DNA of 63,982 nt, counting the filler, from Asterionella formosa (taxonomy: Eukaryota): assembly GCA_002256025.1 (NCBI GenBank). It is 5 parts of 5 records of this genome, joined end to end, with 100 filler letters (N's around TTAATTAATTAA, not from the genome) between each part and the next. Parts side by side here need not be neighbours in the genome. Positions count along the whole stretch, not along the records: positions 38,932 to 51,797 come from NKIB01007114.1; 4 more parts are not named here. One strand, written 5' to 3'. Positions 40,731 to 54,800 of this stretch are shown here, piece by piece. A program made the translations under genes and the position numbers. A model generated the notes under the pieces. That model saw nothing but the letters and a program-made list of their open reading frames with translations, was not told where the DNA came from and searched no databases. How positions within the stretch are numbered: the first letter of the stretch is position 1; the number at the start of each line of letters is the position of its first letter.

Positions 40731-41915
40731 ATGTCTGCCAACATTGGTTACATTGCTGCCGCAATCTCATGTTGCGCCTTTGGCAGTTTCGCCGTCCCAA
40801 TCAAAGGCAACACTGCCAACAGAGTCAAAATCGACCCTCTAGTCATGCAGACGTATAAAACAACCATGTGCTTCCTCACAAGTTGGCTGGTACTGGCGTT
40901 TGGAGTTCCGTTCCATTTCTCGCTGTGGGGAATGGTGTCTGGCTTGTGTTGGGTGCCTGGGGGCACGGCAGGCATTTATGCCGTGCGAAATGCAGGATTA
41001 GCCCTCAGTCAGGGAACGTGGTCGACGTTGAAGGTCATTGTGGGATTTGTGTGGGGGATCTTTATCTTTGACGAGCATGTACGGTCTAGACCAGGGTCAA
41101 CAGCCGCCGTCGTTTGCATGATGCTTGGGTTGTGGGGTATGAGTCATTTTTCATCACTTGACCGTCAAGATATCATTCGAGAGGGTATGGAAGCACCCAT
41201 ACTTTTATCCATTGAAGAACAAGAGAAATACGAGGACGTTATTTACCACAGAGGCAAGTGTGATGAAGCTGCGGATATTGAGGCGGACTCGAATTTCATA
41301 GAGGACCCAGTTAGCGCTGATCGCACGGAAACGGAAGCTCGAACAGAAACGGAAGCTCAGGAATTTGATGCTAGCAGCAAAGAGGAAGAGATTGAAATTC
41401 TCGGATACTTTCGTGTCAGTCGAAGAAGACTAGGATTTTTGTGTGCTTGCTTTGACGGACTCTGGGGTGGCTCAATACTAGTTCCAATGCACTTTGCCAA
41501 AACGACAACTGAAGGTTTGGGATATGTCATTTCCTTTGCTGTTGGAGCCACAACAGTGTTGACAATCATGTGGTTTATTCGATTTACATTTGACGTCGCA
41601 AGTCAGACGCACTCCATCAAAGGATCTTGGGAGCGACTCCCAAGTCTGCATTTATCATCCATGTGGTTGCCAGGTGGGCTTGCTGGGCTCCTTTGGAGTA
41701 TTGGCAACGTTTCATCCATGGTTTCCGTTGCATACTTGGGAGAAGGAGTTGGATATAGCATTGTACAAGCTCAGATGCTAGTGGCTGGCCTCTGGGGTAT
41801 ACTGTGGTATAGAGAGATACAAGGTTGGTATCCAATCGTGGGCTGGTTTCTTTGTGCAGGGATTACATTTATCGGAATCATCCTGTTGAGCTTCGAACAC
41901 CAAAAGGGGATTTAG
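40731..41915 (+). CDS. TMEM144: TMEM144-like drug/metabolite-transporter-superfamily membrane protein
   Basis: About 10 TM in two halves. CAFGSFAVPIK, DP.VMQ.YK, W.PGG...IYAV..AGLA, acidic central loop, GG.ILVPM, G.LWSIGN, VAGLWGI..Y.EI. Confidence 0.8.
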   Translation: MSANIGYIAAAISCCAFGSFAVPIKGNTANRVKIDPLVMQTYKTTMCFLTSWLVLAFGVPFHFSLWGMVSGLCWVPGGTAGIYAVRNAGLALSQGTWSTLKVIVGFVWGIFIFDEHVRSRPGSTAAVVCMMLGLWGMSHFSSLDRQDIIREGMEAPILLSIEEQEKYEDVIYHRGKCDEAADIEADSNFIEDPVSADRTETEARTETEAQEFDASSKEEEIEILGYFRVSRRRLGFLCACFDGLWGGSILVPMHFAKTTTEGLGYVISFAVGATTVLTIMWFIRFTFDVASQTHSIKGSWERLPSLHLSSMWLPGGLAGLLWSIGNVSSMVSVAYLGEGVGYSIVQAQMLVAGLWGILWYREIQGWYPIVGWFLCAGITFIGIILLSFEHQKGI

Positions 41916-46328: not shown

Positions 46329-49300
46329 CTATTTAATAAATTTCTTTCTCGTGAATTCTTCGTAGCTTCCACCGAATAGCCGACCTACATCTCGGCGAAT
46401 CTCAGCTCTGGTCATAGCCCAGCCAGATTCGTTCAACTTAGAATACTCGTGTGCAATAACCCTTGCAATGATGGACCGTGAATGAGCCCATTTATACACA
46501 AGCTGGTCCAAAACGCGCGCATCGCTGTGCTGAGCTGTGAAAGCTGTCCCTAACATCTCCACTCGCATTTGCGTCATCTCTCGAATGATCGACGGTTGGT
46601 TGCAAAACCACCAACAACCATAAATATGAAGGTTTCGGAACTTGGAGGCTAAAACACAGGCTTCGTGTTGGTTTGTTCGAGACAGAAATGTGGCCAAGAA
46701 GGATACATTCGGGAAGCGAAGCAAAAGACGTGCCAACATAGAGGTATCAGCGAAGGCGACGACGCCGTCTCCAGCCGCTTTCAAGGAGGGATTCACGCCT
46801 CGGTACGCTCCAATCTTAAGGGCGAGTGGCAATTTACGTTCCTCGCAGATCTTCATTAAGACGTCGCTTAAAAAGTCGCTATCTTCGTGAATTAGACTGG
46901 CTCGTTCGTCGTCGTCCATTGTGCATTCAATACCAGAAGATTGCACTTGTACAAACGCAAAGGGCTGTGACATGGCTTCGTCATTAATGCGAGTGGGCTT
47001 CTTTACAGCCTCGCCGAAGACGAAATTATGAGGAGTTGATGCCATGAGGTATTCTGGAGTCATGGTATCACACCAGTCACGAAGATAGTCACACGCACCC
47101 TCCAGGGTCACGTCATAGCCCGAAGCCTTCAAAGCAGTTTCTATGGTAGCTTTATCCCCAGCCAGTAAGGGATCAACTCGAAGGGCAGATCGATAGCGCT
47201 TAGAATACTTTTTGCGTTCTGGTCTCCAGTATTGAGATTCATTTGCATCAAAAGGAATGTTCGTCATGATGGCATATCGGATACCCGCTTTCTGGAAGAT
47301 ATGCTCACTGAACATTTCAACACCTTTTAATCCCTTGTCGCGATAGTCGCTGTAAAACTTCCGGATCTGCACCAGATTTCGATTCTTGATGGCATCTCCT
47401 AAACCAAGGGCTTGCAATGTAGTCAACACTCCTCGACAAGCTTCGGAAACTGGTGATCGATCAACGAAAAGCCCCATCCATATCATGTCCGCCTGCACTT
47501 GTGTCGAGGCGGCATAAAAAGTTTCTGGTGTGACATCGGAAGGAGCAGTTATAAAATACTCCGCAACCAAATAGTGGTAGGTGAGAAGCTCATCGATCCC
47601 CCACGAGCATAGTGCTCCGTGGCTTGGTGGGAGCAAGTGCGTGTGCAAGTCAATTGCTTCTGCAGATGCTACTTCAGAAATTACAACATCGGCAATCTCT
47701 TGTCCGCTTACAATCAATTGCATTAGCTTACTGTCATCGGGAACCGGTGTTTCACGAAAATGCAGCGGGCGATCGTATTTTAAATTGCAAACATCTACCA
47801 AGGCCATGGCGTCAGTAGCAAATCCCTTGTCGTAAATATCATATTGATGACTCATTTCATCCAACAGTTCCCTCATACCATCACCGACCACCATGCGGGC
47901 CAATAAAGTCGAAATCGCATGGACGATAATCTCAAAGTAGTCTCTCTGTGCGACTCTCAGCAAGTTTCCACCATCCGGCGCCAATAGGTATGCCCGGACA
48001 ACTGGAGCATAGGAAGATGGCTGTGGATTTGTGGAAGCTATCTCGGCCAACCAAGCAGAGAGGTACCGACCATTAACGCGGCAGATGCATCTGAATTCAT
48101 ACCACCCGGCCTCCAGATTGTAGTGTAAGCCATCATGGTACAAAACTTGACTTCCGCCTCCTTGCTTGTTTCGCACCTTGCCATCAAACCAGCCTGTGTA
48201 TACTTCATTCCTGTTAGATTCGTCAATTGGTGTTAACCAACGCAGCAATGCTGCCCAAGCATAAACCATGCTAGTAGTAATTGGTCTATTACTTTCCACC
48301 AGGTCAATCGCGGTTGGTCCCAAGCGGATGCCACCTTTCGCTGCGCAATTCTGCGCAATAAAGAACGTCGACAGTCCAAAATGAGGATGCGTCAATCGGC
48401 TTCGCCACTCTTCGTAGACAGTCTCAGTTTCCGTGATCCCAAAACTCGACCCAGGCAATATTTGTGACTCAAATAGACTGTCGAGATAATCCATCAAGAG
48501 GCCATCTTCAGCCAAGACATCTGTGCTGAGAATAGCCATTAATGCCATGCATTGAGCCAGTGCCGTGTGTGTTCCATTCGCAACACGCAATTTCAATCCA
48601 ATGTCAGCTTCGAGCTGTTCGGCCGTAGATCTAACAATGACCCCAAAATCTACCAAGGATTGAAAAGCTTCTGGGAGTCGCTGCTCAGGATCTAAAATAA
48701 TCAGCGACTTTTTCGGGAGCGGCTCACAGCGGGGAACTAATCCATCTGATCCGTCTCGTTGCGAGGTGATGCGATCCACCATGGTGTTGCAGAAGACGAC
48801 TCGATTTTCTAAATAACTTCTCATTTCTATCTGATCAGTTCCACAAAGGTCCAGCATGTGTGATAGCATGGTGCTTCCATTGCCTGGTACATTGTCCATG
48901 TTCACGACGCAGAGCTCTGACGTATGGAAATTGTGTGATCTAAAGTATTCCAGCAGACGAAACAAAGCTTGCATTGCTTGCGTTTGACTGTTGGCTAATC
49001 CCGCTTCTGTCACACCGACGCCAATCATTTTGATTTGTAAGGGCTGAGTTTTGAGAAAGTCCATCAGTGCAACAGTGCCGTCAGCTGACCCCATGGTGAA
49101 TGCTCCATAGCAAGGAACAGTAGATGTGACTACAGCTCCAGAATCCAGCACAGTATCCAATTCGTATGTGCCCGTTACTCTTGTCTTCATGTACTCTATA
49201 AAGTTGCTTCCTCGTGTTTGAATCAAAGCGGGCTTGAGCTTGGCTTCAATGAGGGCCGGGACGAGAACCGAGCGCAAGAAGCGGCCAGTGCCCAGACACA

Positions 49301-49349
49301 AGCAATCGACAGACTTGGAGTCATCTGAGAGCCAACAACAATTGGACAT
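46329..49349 (-). CDS. Fusion of mannitol-dehydrogenase-family reductase (UxaB/UxuB-like) and uronate isomerase (UxaC, Bh0493-type)
   Basis: N-half: LGTGRFLR, GVTEAG, MDNVPGNG, NTMVDRIT, KLRVANGTH. C-half: DLHTHL, DELLTYHYL, SEACRGV.T.L, ALRVDPL, GCWWFCN, FTAQHSDARVLDQLVYKW. Single uninterrupted 1006-aa ORF. Confidence 0.88.
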   Translation of the reverse strand: MSNCCWLSDDSKSVDCLCLGTGRFLRSVLVPALIEAKLKPALIQTRGSNFIEYMKTRVTGTYELDTVLDSGAVVTSTVPCYGAFTMGSADGTVALMDFLKTQPLQIKMIGVGVTEAGLANSQTQAMQALFRLLEYFRSHNFHTSELCVVNMDNVPGNGSTMLSHMLDLCGTDQIEMRSYLENRVVFCNTMVDRITSQRDGSDGLVPRCEPLPKKSLIILDPEQRLPEAFQSLVDFGVIVRSTAEQLEADIGLKLRVANGTHTALAQCMALMAILSTDVLAEDGLLMDYLDSLFESQILPGSSFGITETETVYEEWRSRLTHPHFGLSTFFIAQNCAAKGGIRLGPTAIDLVESNRPITTSMVYAWAALLRWLTPIDESNRNEVYTGWFDGKVRNKQGGGSQVLYHDGLHYNLEAGWYEFRCICRVNGRYLSAWLAEIASTNPQPSSYAPVVRAYLLAPDGGNLLRVAQRDYFEIIVHAISTLLARMVVGDGMRELLDEMSHQYDIYDKGFATDAMALVDVCNLKYDRPLHFRETPVPDDSKLMQLIVSGQEIADVVISEVASAEAIDLHTHLLPPSHGALCSWGIDELLTYHYLVAEYFITAPSDVTPETFYAASTQVQADMIWMGLFVDRSPVSEACRGVLTTLQALGLGDAIKNRNLVQIRKFYSDYRDKGLKGVEMFSEHIFQKAGIRYAIMTNIPFDANESQYWRPERKKYSKRYRSALRVDPLLAGDKATIETALKASGYDVTLEGACDYLRDWCDTMTPEYLMASTPHNFVFGEAVKKPTRINDEAMSQPFAFVQVQSSGIECTMDDDERASLIHEDSDFLSDVLMKICEERKLPLALKIGAYRGVNPSLKAAGDGVVAFADTSMLARLLLRFPNVSFLATFLSRTNQHEACVLASKFRNLHIYGCWWFCNQPSIIREMTQMRVEMLGTAFTAQHSDARVLDQLVYKWAHSRSIIARVIAHEYSKLNESGWAMTRAEIRRDVGRLFGGSYEEFTRKKFIK

Positions 49350-49868
49350 TGTGATGGCTAATTGCAGACATTAAGATTGTATGACATGTACACATATCTT
49401 GCATCCGATATTCCATGCTGTGTTCTATGATTTGTTGTTTTAATGATGATGATAATTTTTATGGACTCCATTCTTTGTCGCCTGGGAACGGTAACTGGTA
49501 TACTACCCGCAGTTGTGTAGGGTTAGGATCAAGATTAGGGTTAGTGGTACCAATGATACTGTATGCATGATACATGATGCAGTTTGTACCTGGTACCAGG
49601 TACCAGGTACTATAAAGTTCGACATGTACCGGTAGTCTTCCATCGTCAACATTTTCTTATTGTTTTATAATTACAGGGGCTGCTTCTTTATGGTACACCA
49701 GAACTAGATTTATTGTTTTGCTTATCATCAATATAGAGTACCGGTATACATACGACATCGGGCAGAAGAAGTCTCATTTTCTAATACTAGTTCACATACC
49801 GGTAGCAATACTTACAAGTATTGCAAGTCACATAATATTTACTAAGTCAGTCGTATTTTCTGTCGACC

Positions 49869-51746
49869 ATGTCCTCCTCGTTCAATGACGATCCTAATAA
49901 ACAGACCGCTGCCGGTGCCGCTGCCGCTGCCCCTTCAGTAAACATGGATGATGCCACGATCGCCCAAGTCCTTCAGTGTATGGACACGTTGACGTCGTTC
50001 TTCAATTTCACCCCCGAGGTAGCGCAGGAAGCCATCGAAGCCGTTGGAACCGACGTCACTATGTGCTACAACTACATTCTTGATAAGGGATTGGGAAACG
50101 ATCAAGGAGGGCCCATCGTGCCAATTAGCGACTGCCCACATGTTAAGAATCACGTGAAACTGCCTGTGGAAGGCCTGCCGTCGCCGTATGCACGTTGCAG
50201 CCATGGGACAGCATCGTCCACACTAGGACGAGCAAAGGGCGAATTTATGGACGACGGAAGCTGCCCATCAGGAGAAAACTGGATCTGTCTAGAATGCGGC
50301 ATAGTTGGTTGCTCGAGGTATATCAATGGTCATGGATTAATGCACTACGAAGAATCCCTCAAATCAGAAGAAACGAAAGGGAAAGATGGCGCAGGGCACT
50401 GTATTGCTGTGTCCTTGGCAGACTTGTCAGTTTGGTGTCATGCCTGCTCTGCATATCTCAAAGATCCTTCTTTAGTTCATCTGGTGGCGAAGCTAGAAAA
50501 ACTAAAGTTTGGAATCGAAGGCAAGGATAAAAGCGAAGAGGAAATAGAGAAACACGAGGAAGACGAGGAAGAGGGGGCAGGGATCCAGCAAGAAAGTGAA
50601 AGGTCATCACAATCATCATCAGACGACGAAAGTGAAGAGGAGAAACAGCCAGCAGCATTAACGGCTCCATCGCGAGGATTGCCGTTATGGAATGGTTTCT
50701 ACAGTCAGTCAGACAGTGAGGAAGATATTGAATATCCATTTGCATCTTGTCCATCGAGTCTCAGGGATGTTGCTGCTTTTATAAAGTCTGACAGATGTAA
50801 GTCCATTGTCATTCTTGCTGGAGCAGGTTTATCAACTAGCAGTGGCATTCCTGATTTCCGGTCCGTTGGAGGGCTCTACGATACACTTCAACCAGACCTT
50901 TTAACAGCATCCGAACCCCAACGAGCAGCGATCCGAATGGATCCTACGGTTGCTCTGAATCTGCACCTGTTCTTGGAGAATCCTTTGCCCTGCTTAGAGC
51001 TGAACAGACCCTTTATACTGGGAACCCGAGATCAAAAATGGAAAGCCACCTTGGGACATCGCTTTGTGGAGCTCCTTTATGTCAAAACAGGGAAATTGAC
51101 TCGAATGTATACACAAAACATAGATGGTCTTGAAGGCCAATGTGAGCAGCTCCCTCGAGAGAAGGTGATTGCAGTACACGGTAGCATGAATGAAGCCGAA
51201 TGTGCTAGGTGTGGAAGCGTATCGGACTTCCAAGAATTTTGTACTTTGTTGGAACGCAACATTAAAGATATTACTGGAGAAGACCTACATGCGCCCAAAG
51301 AATCGCAAGGGATTGCTTGTAGCGTTTGTAGTTACCAGGCACTTAAGCCATCAATTGTGCTGTTCAGGTCACCGCTACCAAAAGTGTTCTTCCAAAATGC
51401 TTCCCAGGATATCCCTCATGTTGATTTGTTGATTGTTATTGGAACATCGCTCGCTGTCGCTCCAGCCAACTCACTCATCGTTCGAGTGCCCAAAACTGCG
51501 ATGCGGGTTGTTGTTAACCAAGAGCCTGTGGGGTTTCAGCTTGGTATAGACTACAGTGATGAAGCAGAGCGAGATTTTTTCGCAAAGGGAGATGCTGACG
51601 CTGTTTTGTTAGATCTAATGGTGGAATTAGGTTGGTTGGACGATCTCATTCCAATCCTCAACAGCGAGAGTCTGGCACCAGCGAGCGCTGCAATACTTAA
51701 GGCTCGTCTAGATCGCGAAGGCAAAGTGTCCACCAATAGCTTGTGA
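49869..51746 (+). CDS. Class I (SIRT2/Hst2-like) sirtuin with N-terminal UBA-like helix bundle and ZnF-UBP domain
   Basis: CPH...ENWICLECG.VGCSRYINGH...H...H...SLADLSVWCHAC.AY (ZnF-UBP); acidic linker; GAGLSTSSGIPDFRS, YTQNIDGLE, VHGS, CARC...CSVC, KPSIVLF, GTSLAVAPAN. Confidence 0.9.
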   Translation: MSSSFNDDPNKQTAAGAAAAAPSVNMDDATIAQVLQCMDTLTSFFNFTPEVAQEAIEAVGTDVTMCYNYILDKGLGNDQGGPIVPISDCPHVKNHVKLPVEGLPSPYARCSHGTASSTLGRAKGEFMDDGSCPSGENWICLECGIVGCSRYINGHGLMHYEESLKSEETKGKDGAGHCIAVSLADLSVWCHACSAYLKDPSLVHLVAKLEKLKFGIEGKDKSEEEIEKHEEDEEEGAGIQQESERSSQSSSDDESEEEKQPAALTAPSRGLPLWNGFYSQSDSEEDIEYPFASCPSSLRDVAAFIKSDRCKSIVILAGAGLSTSSGIPDFRSVGGLYDTLQPDLLTASEPQRAAIRMDPTVALNLHLFLENPLPCLELNRPFILGTRDQKWKATLGHRFVELLYVKTGKLTRMYTQNIDGLEGQCEQLPREKVIAVHGSMNEAECARCGSVSDFQEFCTLLERNIKDITGEDLHAPKESQGIACSVCSYQALKPSIVLFRSPLPKVFFQNASQDIPHVDLLIVIGTSLAVAPANSLIVRVPKTAMRVVVNQEPVGFQLGIDYSDEAERDFFAKGDADAVLLDLMVELGWLDDLIPILNSESLAPASAAILKARLDREGKVSTNSL

Positions 51747-51897: not shown

Positions 51898-54800
51898 GAG
51901 GATCGTTTTCCTTAATACATGAACGGGTTATGCCTCAAGGCATTTCTTTGTCTGACGAGACATCCCAATTAATACATACCATAGCTGGTACTTATTCATT
52001 TCATGCCAGTGTCATGCTATATGACCTAATTTTACCAGAATTTAATCGATCCGCTCATATTTTACAACAAAAGTGTCAAGTCTTTAATGGTCTATGCACA
52101 TTCGATGTTATTTTAGAACGTGATTTCCTCCGTCAAGTTGGTTTAACCATTGATTTTGTAAATGACACCATGTCTTGTATGGATATGATTGTTCCTATGC
52201 ATCCTCTCACATTCTTTGATGATAGAGAACGTTTACGAGATGTATTATTATATTTTGATGCACCTATGATTGTGGAATCTTTATATGCGCTGGAAATTAA
52301 AGCTGCTGAATATAATTACGTAAATATTGATACAGTGGTGGATAAACAGATACATTTGACAACAATACAACGATCATGTTTACGAACTATATTGGTTAAA
52401 TATCAAACATTATTTGATGGCAAATTAAAAGTCTATCCTCATAAACAGGTACATTTGGAATTATTATCAAATGCTGTCCCTCGTCATCAACGAGCATATG
52501 CATCCGGTCGCTCATATTCATTTAGAAGTTTTCAAAACAGAATTACAACGATTATGTGATATTGGAGTCCTACAAAAATGTGGTGCTTCTAAATGGGCAT
52601 CTCCCACTTTTATTATTCCAAAAAAGGATGGAAGTGTCCGATGGGTATCAGATTTTCGTGATCTTAATAAAGTCATCAATCGCAATATATATCCTTTGCC
52701 TCGAATACAAACTATTCTCACTAAACGTGCTGGATATGTACTTTTCACCAAATTAGATGTTTCCATGCAATACTATACTTTTGCATTGGATGTGGAGAGT
52801 CAAAACTTATGTGTTATTTCAACTCCATTTGGTTTATATAAATATTTATGTCTCCCTATGGGGGTGAAACAATCATCTGATATCGCACAAGAAACTATGG
52901 AACAGATCCTTAGTGATTTAGATGATGTAGAAATTTATATTGATGATGTGGGTTGTTTTTCAATGAATTTTTCGGATCACCTTCATTTATTGGACACTAT
53001 TTTACATCGTTTACAGACAAATGGTTTTACAATTAATCCATCTAAGTGTGAATGGGCCGTCCAAGAGACAGATTGGCTAGGCTATTGGTTAACTTTTAAT
53101 GGACTGAAACCTTGGTCTAAAAAGGTCCGAGCATTGATTAATATGTCTTCACCTACCAATCTTAAACAAGTTCGATCATTTCTCGGTGCTGTTACTTACT
53201 ATCGAGACATGTTTCCTAGACGATCTCATGTTCTTGGACCACTTACGGATTTAATTGGAGCTAGTCCATTTATCTGGTTACCTATACATTAACAAGCTTT
53301 TGAAGAAATGAAAGCATTGTTAGTTGCAGATACACTCATGCGTTATCCTGACCATAATCTTCCTTTTCATATCTTTACTGATGCCTCTGATTATCAATTA
53401 GGGTCGGTCATTATGCAAAATGATCTCCCAGTTGCTTATTATTCTCGCAAATTATCTGCTGCTCAAAAGAATTATACTACTATTGAAAAAGAATTACTTT
53501 CTGTGGTAGAAACTTTTTAAGAATTTCGCTCTATGTTATTGGGCGCAGTTCTCCATGTTCACACTGATCATCGAAATCTTATTTATAATACTTGACATAC
53601 TCAACGTGTTCTACAATGGAGACTTAATATTGAAGAATATCATCCTTCTTTTCACTACGTGAAAGGGATTGACAATGCTATTGCAGATTCCATCTCTCGC
53701 CTCCCAAGGCTTGAGTCTTTGGTGGGGGATGATATTGATATTGGACCGAAATCTCCAACATCAACTTCCACTTCTACTTTTTCAATTGAATTAGATGATG
53801 AACCTTTGCTTACATGTTTCCTTAATCATCCCATCTTGACAGACAATATTCAATATCCTCTGGATTATACTAATTTAATACATGATAGACAATTGCTGGA
53901 TATAAAATTGATTCTCAATCAACAAACACATCCATTACAATTTCCTTCTATCAATTTTCATGATATATTTTTTTATTATGTTTCGTGAAGAATCCAGGAG
54001 ATACTTGGCGTATTGCTATTCCTACATCATTATTGGATCCTACTATTAATTGGTATCATCAGATGTTAGCTCATGTGGGTATGACAAGATTAAATGCTAC
54101 AATTGCTACACATTTTTATCACCCACATTAAAAGCAAGAGTGGAACAGCCATATTGTAAGCATACTATGTGAAGCATGTCAACATACAAAATTACCTGGT
54201 ACTGGTTTTGGTGAACTTCCACCCAGGAATGCATTGTTATTACCATGGCCAGAAGTCGCAGTAGATCTAATTGGTCCATGGAAGATAACAGTGGCTGTTC
54301 AAGCGATTAAATTTCGTGCTCTAACTTGTATTGACACAGTCACCAATTTAGCAGAAATTTTACATATCAATTATAAAACATTAGAAAATATTGCGATGTA
54401 ATTTGAAAATGATTGGTTAGCCAGACATCCCAGTCCAGAACGTTGTATACATGACAATGGAGGTGAATTCACTGGTGTTCCTTTCTTACACATGTTAGTA
54501 TTGAATGGAATCAAAGATGTGACTACTACAATAAAGAATCCACAAGCAAATGCTATCTGTGAACGTTTACATCAATCTATCAGCAATAGTCTACGAGTTA
54601 TGTTAAAGGCTCGTCGTGCTAATTTCCGTCGTCGATCTTATGATTACAAAGTGGGTGACGAGATTTTAATATTATTGGATAATCCTACTACTTTGGATGA
54701 TCGTGGACGAGGTCCTTATACTATTATTCAAGTACATGCCAATGGTACAGTTACTTTTCAACGCACCATGTACATTACAGAACGAATTAATATTAGTCGT

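Follow-up and report, generated by a model that had tools for sequence, protein, structure and literature searches.

What pair of reactions is catalysed by a protein in which a reductase of the mannitol-dehydrogenase family and a uronate isomerase are joined in a single chain? The question is raised by a gene on the minus strand of a 63,982-nucleotide stretch of DNA from the diatom Asterionella formosa (the window), which encodes such a fusion. We think it reasonably probable that the product is a cytosolic isomerase-reductase which converts D-galacturonate into D-altronate, and perhaps D-glucuronate into D-mannonate, the aldonate then meeting a non-canonical fate. The observations underlying this reading are a single open reading frame (ORF) with an unspliced transcript, the presence of both folds, the conservation of catalytic residues, and the occurrence of uxaB-uxaA-isomerase gene contexts in some bacterial relatives. 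The gene and its parts are as follows.

46329..49349, minus strand: reductase-isomerase fusion of 1006 residues, one intronless ORF from ATG (ORF listing, RNA contigs and structural model)
47823..49328, minus strand: residues 8-509, oxidoreductase of the mannitol-dehydrogenase (long-chain polyol/sugar-acid) family (PF01232, structure comparison and residue mapping)
47718..47822, minus strand: residues 510-544, inter-domain linker (alignment; model with predicted template modelling score, pTM, of 0.86)
46347..47717, minus strand: residues 545-1001, Bh0493-type uronate isomerase of amidohydrolase fold (homology, residue mapping and structure comparison)
46896..47012, minus strand: residues 780-818, insertion loop of the isomerase, of low confidence (predicted local distance difference test, pLDDT, below 50; alignment)

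The first-pass annotation of this locus had described an intronless ORF of 1006 residues carrying a set of signature motifs, and this is what is found: the frame holds no N letters, and GTGRFLR (at residue 20), VDRIT (191), KLRVANGTH (253), HTH (569), WWF (913) and HSDAR (941) each occur in it once. Transcript support comes from RNA contigs of four runs (of 14 listed), such contigs carrying no information on strand or level. In all four a single contig spans the domain junction, the ORF is covered without gaps and no joints are reported, so that the two separate transcripts named in that annotation as grounds for abandoning the fusion are not seen. The contigs of X1 (46421-49238) and X6 (46498-49441) end close to the ends of the gene and positions 49709-49875 are uncovered in all four runs, which is the pattern expected for an mRNA; those of X2 and X3 extend into the neighbouring gene. 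Between strains, 23 variants fall in the ORF, 11 synonymous and 12 non-synonymous (pN/pS 0.34, p=0.01). An artefactual fusion of two genes is excluded by the N-free single frame, by the junction-crossing RNA and by the fused state of 86 of the 120 best homologs, and it is concluded, as far as sequence can tell, that the fusion protein is real, conserved and probably active. Its AlphaFold model has a mean pLDDT of 87 and a pTM of 0.86. The first Rossmann strand begins at about residue 14, which leaves no space for a targeting peptide and suggests a cytosolic location. In the alignment, oomycetes and dinoflagellates have a shorter linker than diatoms, and it is in diatoms that the insertion loop reaches its greatest length.

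A Pfam profile search of the fusion protein gave no match to its C-terminal half, and there was likewise no above-cut-off match to Pfam UxaC and no match to the NCBIfam glucuronate-isomerase family at E<=0.1. The same region matches the uronate isomerase BH0493 of Bacillus halodurans with an E value of 2.3e-98, and this combination places it in the outlier Bh0493 group rather than the E. coli UxaC group: the uronate isomerase proposed in the first-pass annotation therefore stands, though not as a UxaC-type enzyme. The modelled C-half superimposes on BH0493 with Z 47.3 and a root-mean-square deviation (rmsd) of 1.7 Å over 403 aligned residues at 46% identity, compared with Z values of 24-28 for the uronate isomerases of Thermotoga, Salmonella and Caulobacter; the ligand-bound structures 3hka (D-fructuronate) and 3hk8 are among its top matches. 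Counted along the printed alignment, H569, H571, H592, Y593, R724, W913, W914, D943 and R945 correspond to Bh0493 H26, H28, H49, Y50, R170, W325, W326, D355 and R357. We take H26, H28 and D355 of Bh0493 to be its zinc ligands, and H49, Y50, R170, W325/W326 and R357 to serve in catalysis and binding (carboxylate binding, proton transfer). Among 90 fused proteins, H569, H571, H592 and Y593 are kept in every one, R724 in 84 and D943 in 79, with Ser in six and a gap in five at the last position. The equivalents of both R724 and D943 are lost in six of the 90 (P0101, P0102, P0110, P0111, P0115 and P0118), all in a dinoflagellate clade that includes all four named dinoflagellate entries; these six have kept their reductase residues and metal histidines. 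With both residues gone, the isomerase of this clade is probably dead or changed, and these copies probably represent a pseudo-isomerase. D-Galacturonate is a substrate that BH0493 itself isomerises, according to the accessible part of PMC2684587.

The N-terminal half belongs, as had been supposed, to the mannitol-dehydrogenase family: residues 18-210 match Pfam Mannitol_dh (PF01232) with 41.6 bits against a cut-off of 27, and the GxGxF, Lys-x4-Asn-x2-His, DN and VDR motifs are present. It carries GxGxFLR, D152-N153, D192, K253, N258, H261, N334, K338 and R342, of which K253, N258, H261, D152, N153, D192 and K338 are equivalent to K295, N300, H303, D190, N191, D230 and K381 of the Pseudomonas fluorescens mannitol 2-dehydrogenase M2DH, where Lys, Asn and His are presumably the catalytic residues. 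These equivalents are kept in 87-90 of the 90 fused proteins (K253, N258, D152, N153 and D192 in all, H261 in 89). The modelled N-half aligns with 4im7 over 427 residues (Z 30.1, rmsd 3.0). UxaB is the top NCBIfam family in all nine eukaryotic N-halves tested, and a TEAG motif, Q44 and N334 are common to the N-half and UxaB and are not found in UxuB. All 90 fused proteins carry R342; the aligned residue is Arg in UxaB, UxuB-type enzymes and YdfI and Phe in the neutral-polyol enzymes 1lj8, 7rk4 and 5itg, a contrast that points to an anionic substrate and makes R342 a candidate carboxylate binder. Taken together, R342, the best-family calls and the Q44, TEAG and N334 signatures favour action on a sugar acid with UxaB-like specificity. 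At position 49, an acidic residue occurs in none of nine sequences from diatoms and in 12 of 19 from oomycetes, which is a weak hint as to the cofactor.

The genome also encodes a paralog of the N-half alone (L002:1519-3081, minus strand, contig C13294), a protein of 521 residues about 72% identical to it, with intact catalytic residues, a dN/dS of 0.16 and an end just short of the linker; no isomerase match lies within the 18 kb of its contig. A separate ancient family of N-only proteins is unsupported, since such proteins are interspersed with fused ones in the tree, and many of them are probably first exons or fragments.

The first-pass annotation had proposed a survey of the fusion across stramenopiles and bacteria, and this placed it in ochrophytes, oomycetes, dinoflagellates and a malawimonad. 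Among the best 120 of 240 homologs found, 86 are fused, 17 comprise the N-half with part of the C-half, five the C-half with part of the N-half, and 12 the C-half only. Of the homologs that carry names, diatom proteins come closest; the fused ones among the named entries belong to diatoms, to Nannochloropsis, Tribonema, Chrysoparadoxa and many oomycetes, to four dinoflagellates (Scrippsiella, Crypthecodinium, Cladocopium and Polykrikos) and, in one transcriptome, to the malawimonad Gefionella. A search of the Atlas returned the protein's own family alone, an unnamed oomycete-rich cluster. No third, Rosetta-stone domain was seen in 19 long or odd homologs, matches to MAT1 and PP-binding being read as unrelated, and no neighbours are conserved among four eukaryotic fused loci. 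No fused bacterial copy was found among 36 bacterial genome loci or 80 metagenome loci (80 retained of 444), flanks often being short and the counts lower bounds. The N-half profile matches two of the 36 genome loci, both through separate uxaB genes, and nine of the 80 metagenome loci, three through separate uxaB genes and six through fused copies that are read as eukaryotic from their introns or tree positions. One apparent bacterial donor was rejected: a diatom-like fused gene (L005:1-2512) opens a 563-kb contig of an actinobacterial bin, but its GT-AG intron and the step in guanine-plus-cytosine content (GC), 53% against 67% further along, indicate a probable chimeric join, and it was left out of the 36 loci.

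In an isomerase tree, all 30 fused rows form one group with support 99, and three rows of odd composition that share the Lys of the fused proteins at position 845 (Lys-type, see below) are placed apart from the eukaryotes. In a 44-row tree, a sequence almost identical to one of these (L069) is placed with the eukaryotes. There, 20 eukaryotic and virus-like rows split from 24 bacterial rows with a Shimodaira-Hasegawa-like approximate likelihood ratio test (SH-aLRT) value of 100, a grouping apart which suggests that the isomerase is ultimately bacterial in origin. The nearest bacterial rows are one Planctomycetales sequence and one unnamed; a donor lineage is not assignable from them, and none is claimed from trees that are fast and unrooted. 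Recent transfer into diatoms is ruled out by the wide distribution and by composition, the fusion gene (GC 0.477, third-position GC3 0.484) matching its seven neighbours (0.44-0.49 and 0.38-0.49, respectively). The horizontal acquisition suggested in the first-pass annotation is thus upheld for the distant past and not as a recent or lineage-specific event, and the simplest reading is one ancient acquisition from bacteria, followed by vertical descent across stramenopiles and alveolates with losses or fissions.

The fusion has precedents in print. A Phytophthora sojae composite (gene 347522, GI:348670788), in which a mannitol dehydrogenase at the N-terminus is followed by a Bh0493-like domain at the C-terminus, is tabled as a 'Prediction for composite case' in the accessible part of PMC4017328, which cites Nguyen et al. 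2008. The diatom protein has both domains in the same order and is homologous to the Phytophthora proteins, at about 40% identity over the alignment. In PMC2705460, so far as its available text goes, Ps131558/Tp264628 is listed as 'Mannitol dehydrogenase + unknown', common to P. sojae, P. ramorum and Thalassiosira pseudonana, with an Emiliania huxleyi ortholog given for the second domain; matched by description alone, it is very probably the same family. The diatom protein therefore belongs to a family of fusions that is already known, though uncharacterised, and is neither a new discovery nor a diatom-specific transfer. Of the first-pass annotation's proviso that the fusion might prove already characterised and vertically widespread, the second part holds, along with earlier prediction: no assay, knockout, survey or other biochemical study was found in the open literature, outside which subscription papers mostly lie. 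Also unreported in the open literature found are the breadth of the family, the degenerate isomerase site in dinoflagellates, the stand-alone copies in giant-virus-like DNA and the missing lower pathway. Bh0493 (PDB 2q08, 3hk9, 3hka) shares its fold and its metal and catalytic residues with the C-half, from which it differs in the absence of a fused reductase, in having Met258 where the diatom protein has Lys845, and in lacking an insertion of some 40 residues at 780-818. UxaB and UxuB/YdfI (PF01232/PF08125) have the fold, the catalytic Lys/Asn/His and a Lys-x3-Arg motif in common with the N-half. For the joining of upper isomerase steps to a different lower half there is a precedent in the hybrid route of Lactobacillus suebicus, which, in the part of PMC6978723 available, is bacterial, uses separate enzymes in place of a fused one and includes a mannonate kinase and an epimerase.

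Bh0493-type isomerase genes adjoin both uxaB and uxaA in four independent bacterial loci (L004/L070, which are one sequence, L037, L100 and L127), and L037 has polygalacturonase and KduI genes besides. These contexts tie the isomerase family to galacturonate in some bacteria, although most loci are without such neighbours; no uxuA-like neighbour is seen at any of 118 loci. Stand-alone Lys-type isomerases also occur, in other plankton as well as in giant-virus-like DNA. One, L058, has eukaryotic neighbours and no N-half in the 8 kb upstream; three others, L069 (5572-6894), L072 (5976-7247) and L073 (2847-6535), lie on contigs of only 18-24% GC. L073 looks like giant-virus DNA: genes for a poly(A)-polymerase regulatory subunit and a helicase are close by, and a KdgK-like kinase lies two genes downstream of the isomerase, about 1.4 kb away. 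Scans of IMG/VR gave no Lys-type copy, and one distant match, L136, a phage-like viral contig on which glycosyltransferase-like and isomerase genes occur unfused (L136:3943-7690). A second, unrelated fusion, of a glycosyltransferase-like domain to a Bh0493-type isomerase, occurs in Pelagibacter, where its gene neighbours a PFK-like one within a cluster of glycan type (L039:7059-9119, L038:1-1872, P0347, P0352, P0367).

The isomerase, or Ashwell, pathway comprises uxaC, uxaB/uxuB, uxaA/uxuA, kdgK and eda, and in the accessible part of PMC6353982 the hexuronate isomerase route is assigned to bacteria, whereas fungi and animals are given reductive ones. The bifunctional reading of the first-pass annotation is supported by homology, residue conservation and comparison of modelled structures. 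From these we infer substrate, direction, cofactor and location as follows. The C-terminal, zinc-dependent domain would isomerise free hexuronate, giving D-tagaturonate from D-galacturonate and D-fructuronate from D-glucuronate; reduction of the keto-acid by the N-terminal domain, at the expense of NAD(P)H, would then yield the aldonate, which is most likely D-altronate, in the manner of UxaB, and possibly D-mannonate as well; and the fusion would allow reduction to pull isomerisation forward. Free galacturonate is a plausible substrate, since L-galactonolactone dehydrogenase (GLDH) is encoded in the genome (474.7 bits, cut-off 458) and algae with secondary plastids make ascorbate through D-galacturonate, according to the available part of PMC4396506. 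The diatom enzyme would then be an orphan upper module, whose aldonate is either processed by enzymes outside the canonical set or constitutes an end or overflow product; it is the failure to find canonical dehydratases and a 2-keto-3-deoxygluconate (KDG) kinase that points to such a fate.

Several findings weigh against this reading. At the end of strand 5, the Met258 that marks Bh0493 is replaced by K845, and the position is Lys in 84 and Arg in six of the 90 fused proteins, compared with Met in 31 of 33 bacterial loci, so that the specificity of the isomerase may have shifted. Between the N-half and the four bacterial reductases compared with it, identity reaches only some 20%; the best NCBIfam family for the N-half, UxaB (NF002969), scores 40.3 bits against a cut-off of 359, and UxuB (NF011611) scores 13 against 603. 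The N-half has the DN motif of UxuB and M2DH and not the CE-x motif of UxaB, and its structural matches to YdfI, M2DH and the mannitol-1-phosphate dehydrogenase M1PDH differ by no more than 1.5 Z units, so that subfamilies are not separated. By its motifs and scores it lies outside every curated subfamily, as a mosaic of UxaB and UxuB motifs. Among 118 loci, uxaA-like neighbours are found in six, and the isomerase family is therefore not bound to one pathway. In the genome itself (15,436 contigs, searched exon by exon, so that absence is not proven), there are no matches to UxaA (altronate dehydratase, PF20629), to UxuA (mannonate dehydratase, PF03786) or to the mandelate-racemase-type N domain MR_MLE_N, and hence no consumer of altronate or mannonate is seen.

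That the same chemistry instead feeds a full Ashwell route, with dehydratase, KDG kinase and KDPG (2-keto-3-deoxy-6-phosphogluconate) aldolase recycling uronic acids of the wall and extracellular polymeric substances, was the proposal of the first-pass annotation, and would require the lower genes to have been missed or to be too divergent; this seems to us unlikely. Of the enzymes which that annotation named for a genome check, only an Eda-like aldolase turned up (PF01081, 105.6 bits, over its cut-off; 147 bits against a TIGR01182 cut-off of 156, in a family that includes KHG aldolases), and UxuA, UxaA and KdgK did not. UxaE is also unmatched in the genome, and control genomes were positive in the searches for UxaA, UxuA, UxaE and MR_MLE_N. 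The three matches to MR_MLE_C are one MenC-like domain and two enolases. KDG kinase is the best family for none of the 11 kinase ORFs (from 14 PfkB matches), compared with 600 bits for a bacterial control. The Eda-like protein appears, by eye, to have a mitochondrial presequence, which the fusion lacks. The sole IlvD/Edd-family gene scores as a dihydroxy-acid dehydratase (290 bits, versus 47 for Edd), so that Edd too was not found in the genome; that eukaryotes lack Edd, a claim to the contrary being rejected, is stated in the accessible text of PMC10847513. These five independent blanks make the complete route improbable, allowing for the fragmented assembly. In its favour are, besides the Eda-like aldolase and that fragmentation, the KdgK-like kinase near the L073 isomerase and a KdgK-Eda fusion (P0419), found in some marine eukaryote-like sequences and among the longer relatives of the L073 kinase; they hint that the lower half may exist elsewhere, outside this diatom. 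A change of substrate, to a phosphorylated, sulfonated or neutral aldose/ketose pair such as the mannitol/fructose of database names, would account for the Lys or Arg at position 845 in 90 of 90 fused proteins and for the very long branch that separates the N-half from UxaB in the tree; glycan clusters hold further proteins of Bh0493 type in which the fusion partner is a glycosyltransferase-like domain (L039, P0367), and the six dinoflagellate-clade copies retain the domain despite losing the two key residues. We regard it as distinctly unlikely all the same, given that non-dinoflagellate copies retain the metal ligands together with R724, Y593, D943 and R945, and that R342 sets the family apart from neutral-polyol enzymes.

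Both reactions are reversible, and the enzyme could in principle run oxidatively, D-altronate or D-mannonate plus NAD(P)+ giving the keto-uronate and thence D-galacturonate or D-glucuronate for salvage or supply, a scheme for which the missing dehydratase is irrelevant. We know of no source of altronate or mannonate in diatom cells, and the equilibrium in this family favours reduction at neutral pH, which makes the oxidative direction very unlikely even with GLDH in the genome and algal ascorbate made via D-galacturonate (PMC4396506, as available). Scarcely to be expected is a role as a two-step D-galacturonate reductase for vitamin C, from galacturonate through tagaturonate to L-galactonate. 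To our knowledge no diatom enzyme for the galacturonate-to-L-galactonate step has been described, and GLDH is present; the characterised members of the family, however, give the mannitol/altronate configuration, the epimer opposite to L-galactonate, and the N-half retains the Lys, Asn and His that determine the stereochemistry. The degenerate isomerase site of dinoflagellates tells against this role, as does Table 2 of PMC2705460, in the part of that paper available, where the Phaeodactylum tricornutum cell of the probable ortholog is blank; for it may be set the GLDH reported in oomycetes, which carry the fusion, in the accessible part of PMC4396506. Returning to the isomerase-reductase that would deliver D-altronate, it is tempting to go further and suggest that eukaryotes have an ancient, undescribed hexuronate route which begins with the fusion and the lower half of which in diatoms uses enzymes of no known family, or that the fusion regulates the pool of D-galacturonate from which vitamin C is made; taken to its extreme, the idea would have the Lys845 site and the divergent reductase make L-galactonate directly. 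This wider proposal is possible, though on balance we doubt it.

MIOX was considered as a source of glucuronate and rejected: its sole match is a GNAT, fascin and MIOX-like fusion (L049:439-2313, contig C316) with HQ in place of HD, which we take to be the iron motif of MIOX. The Eda-like aldolase gene is divergently paired, on contig C1280 (L042:156-2133), with a gene weakly resembling PRK08245, presumably an RraA/HMG-aldolase-like family, and both products apparently have mitochondrial presequences. The eukaryote-looking KdgK-then-Eda fusions P0419 and P0418 have an apparent mitochondrial presequence and a domain order the reverse of that in bacterial Eda-KdgK fusions. Among other sugar-kinase relatives in the genome, a xylose-isomerase-like barrel (L139:460-2541) and a HAM1 pyrophosphatase (L138:1318-3039) occur as fusion partners of ribokinase-like domains. 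On its own contig, C7114, the fusion gene is flanked by a TMEM70/186/223-like gene and by one (window 49869-51746, plus strand) that encodes a UBP zinc finger and a SIR2 domain together. A TMEM144-family transporter with a weak sugar-transport match lies 4.4 kb from the fusion (40731-41915, plus strand), with no evidence of a link, and a reverse-transcriptase fragment marks the start of a low-GC region of the window (52471-53292, plus strand).

If the fusion is active, much of the eukaryotic tree would have the first two steps of the hexuronate isomerase route in one polypeptide, including plant-pathogenic oomycetes, which meet pectin, and bloom-forming diatoms. The lower steps apparently being missing, study of the enzyme could turn up a dehydratase or kinase not seen before, or show sugar acids to have a fate not yet described. 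The enzyme would bear also on the retention by diatoms of an Eda-like aldolase, a eukaryotic Edd having been rejected (PMC10847513, in the part available), and a single-chain isomerase-reductase of eukaryotic origin might aid expression of the route in yeast. The question that it raises is what use a broad set of eukaryotes may make of the upper half of a route that has been regarded as bacterial.

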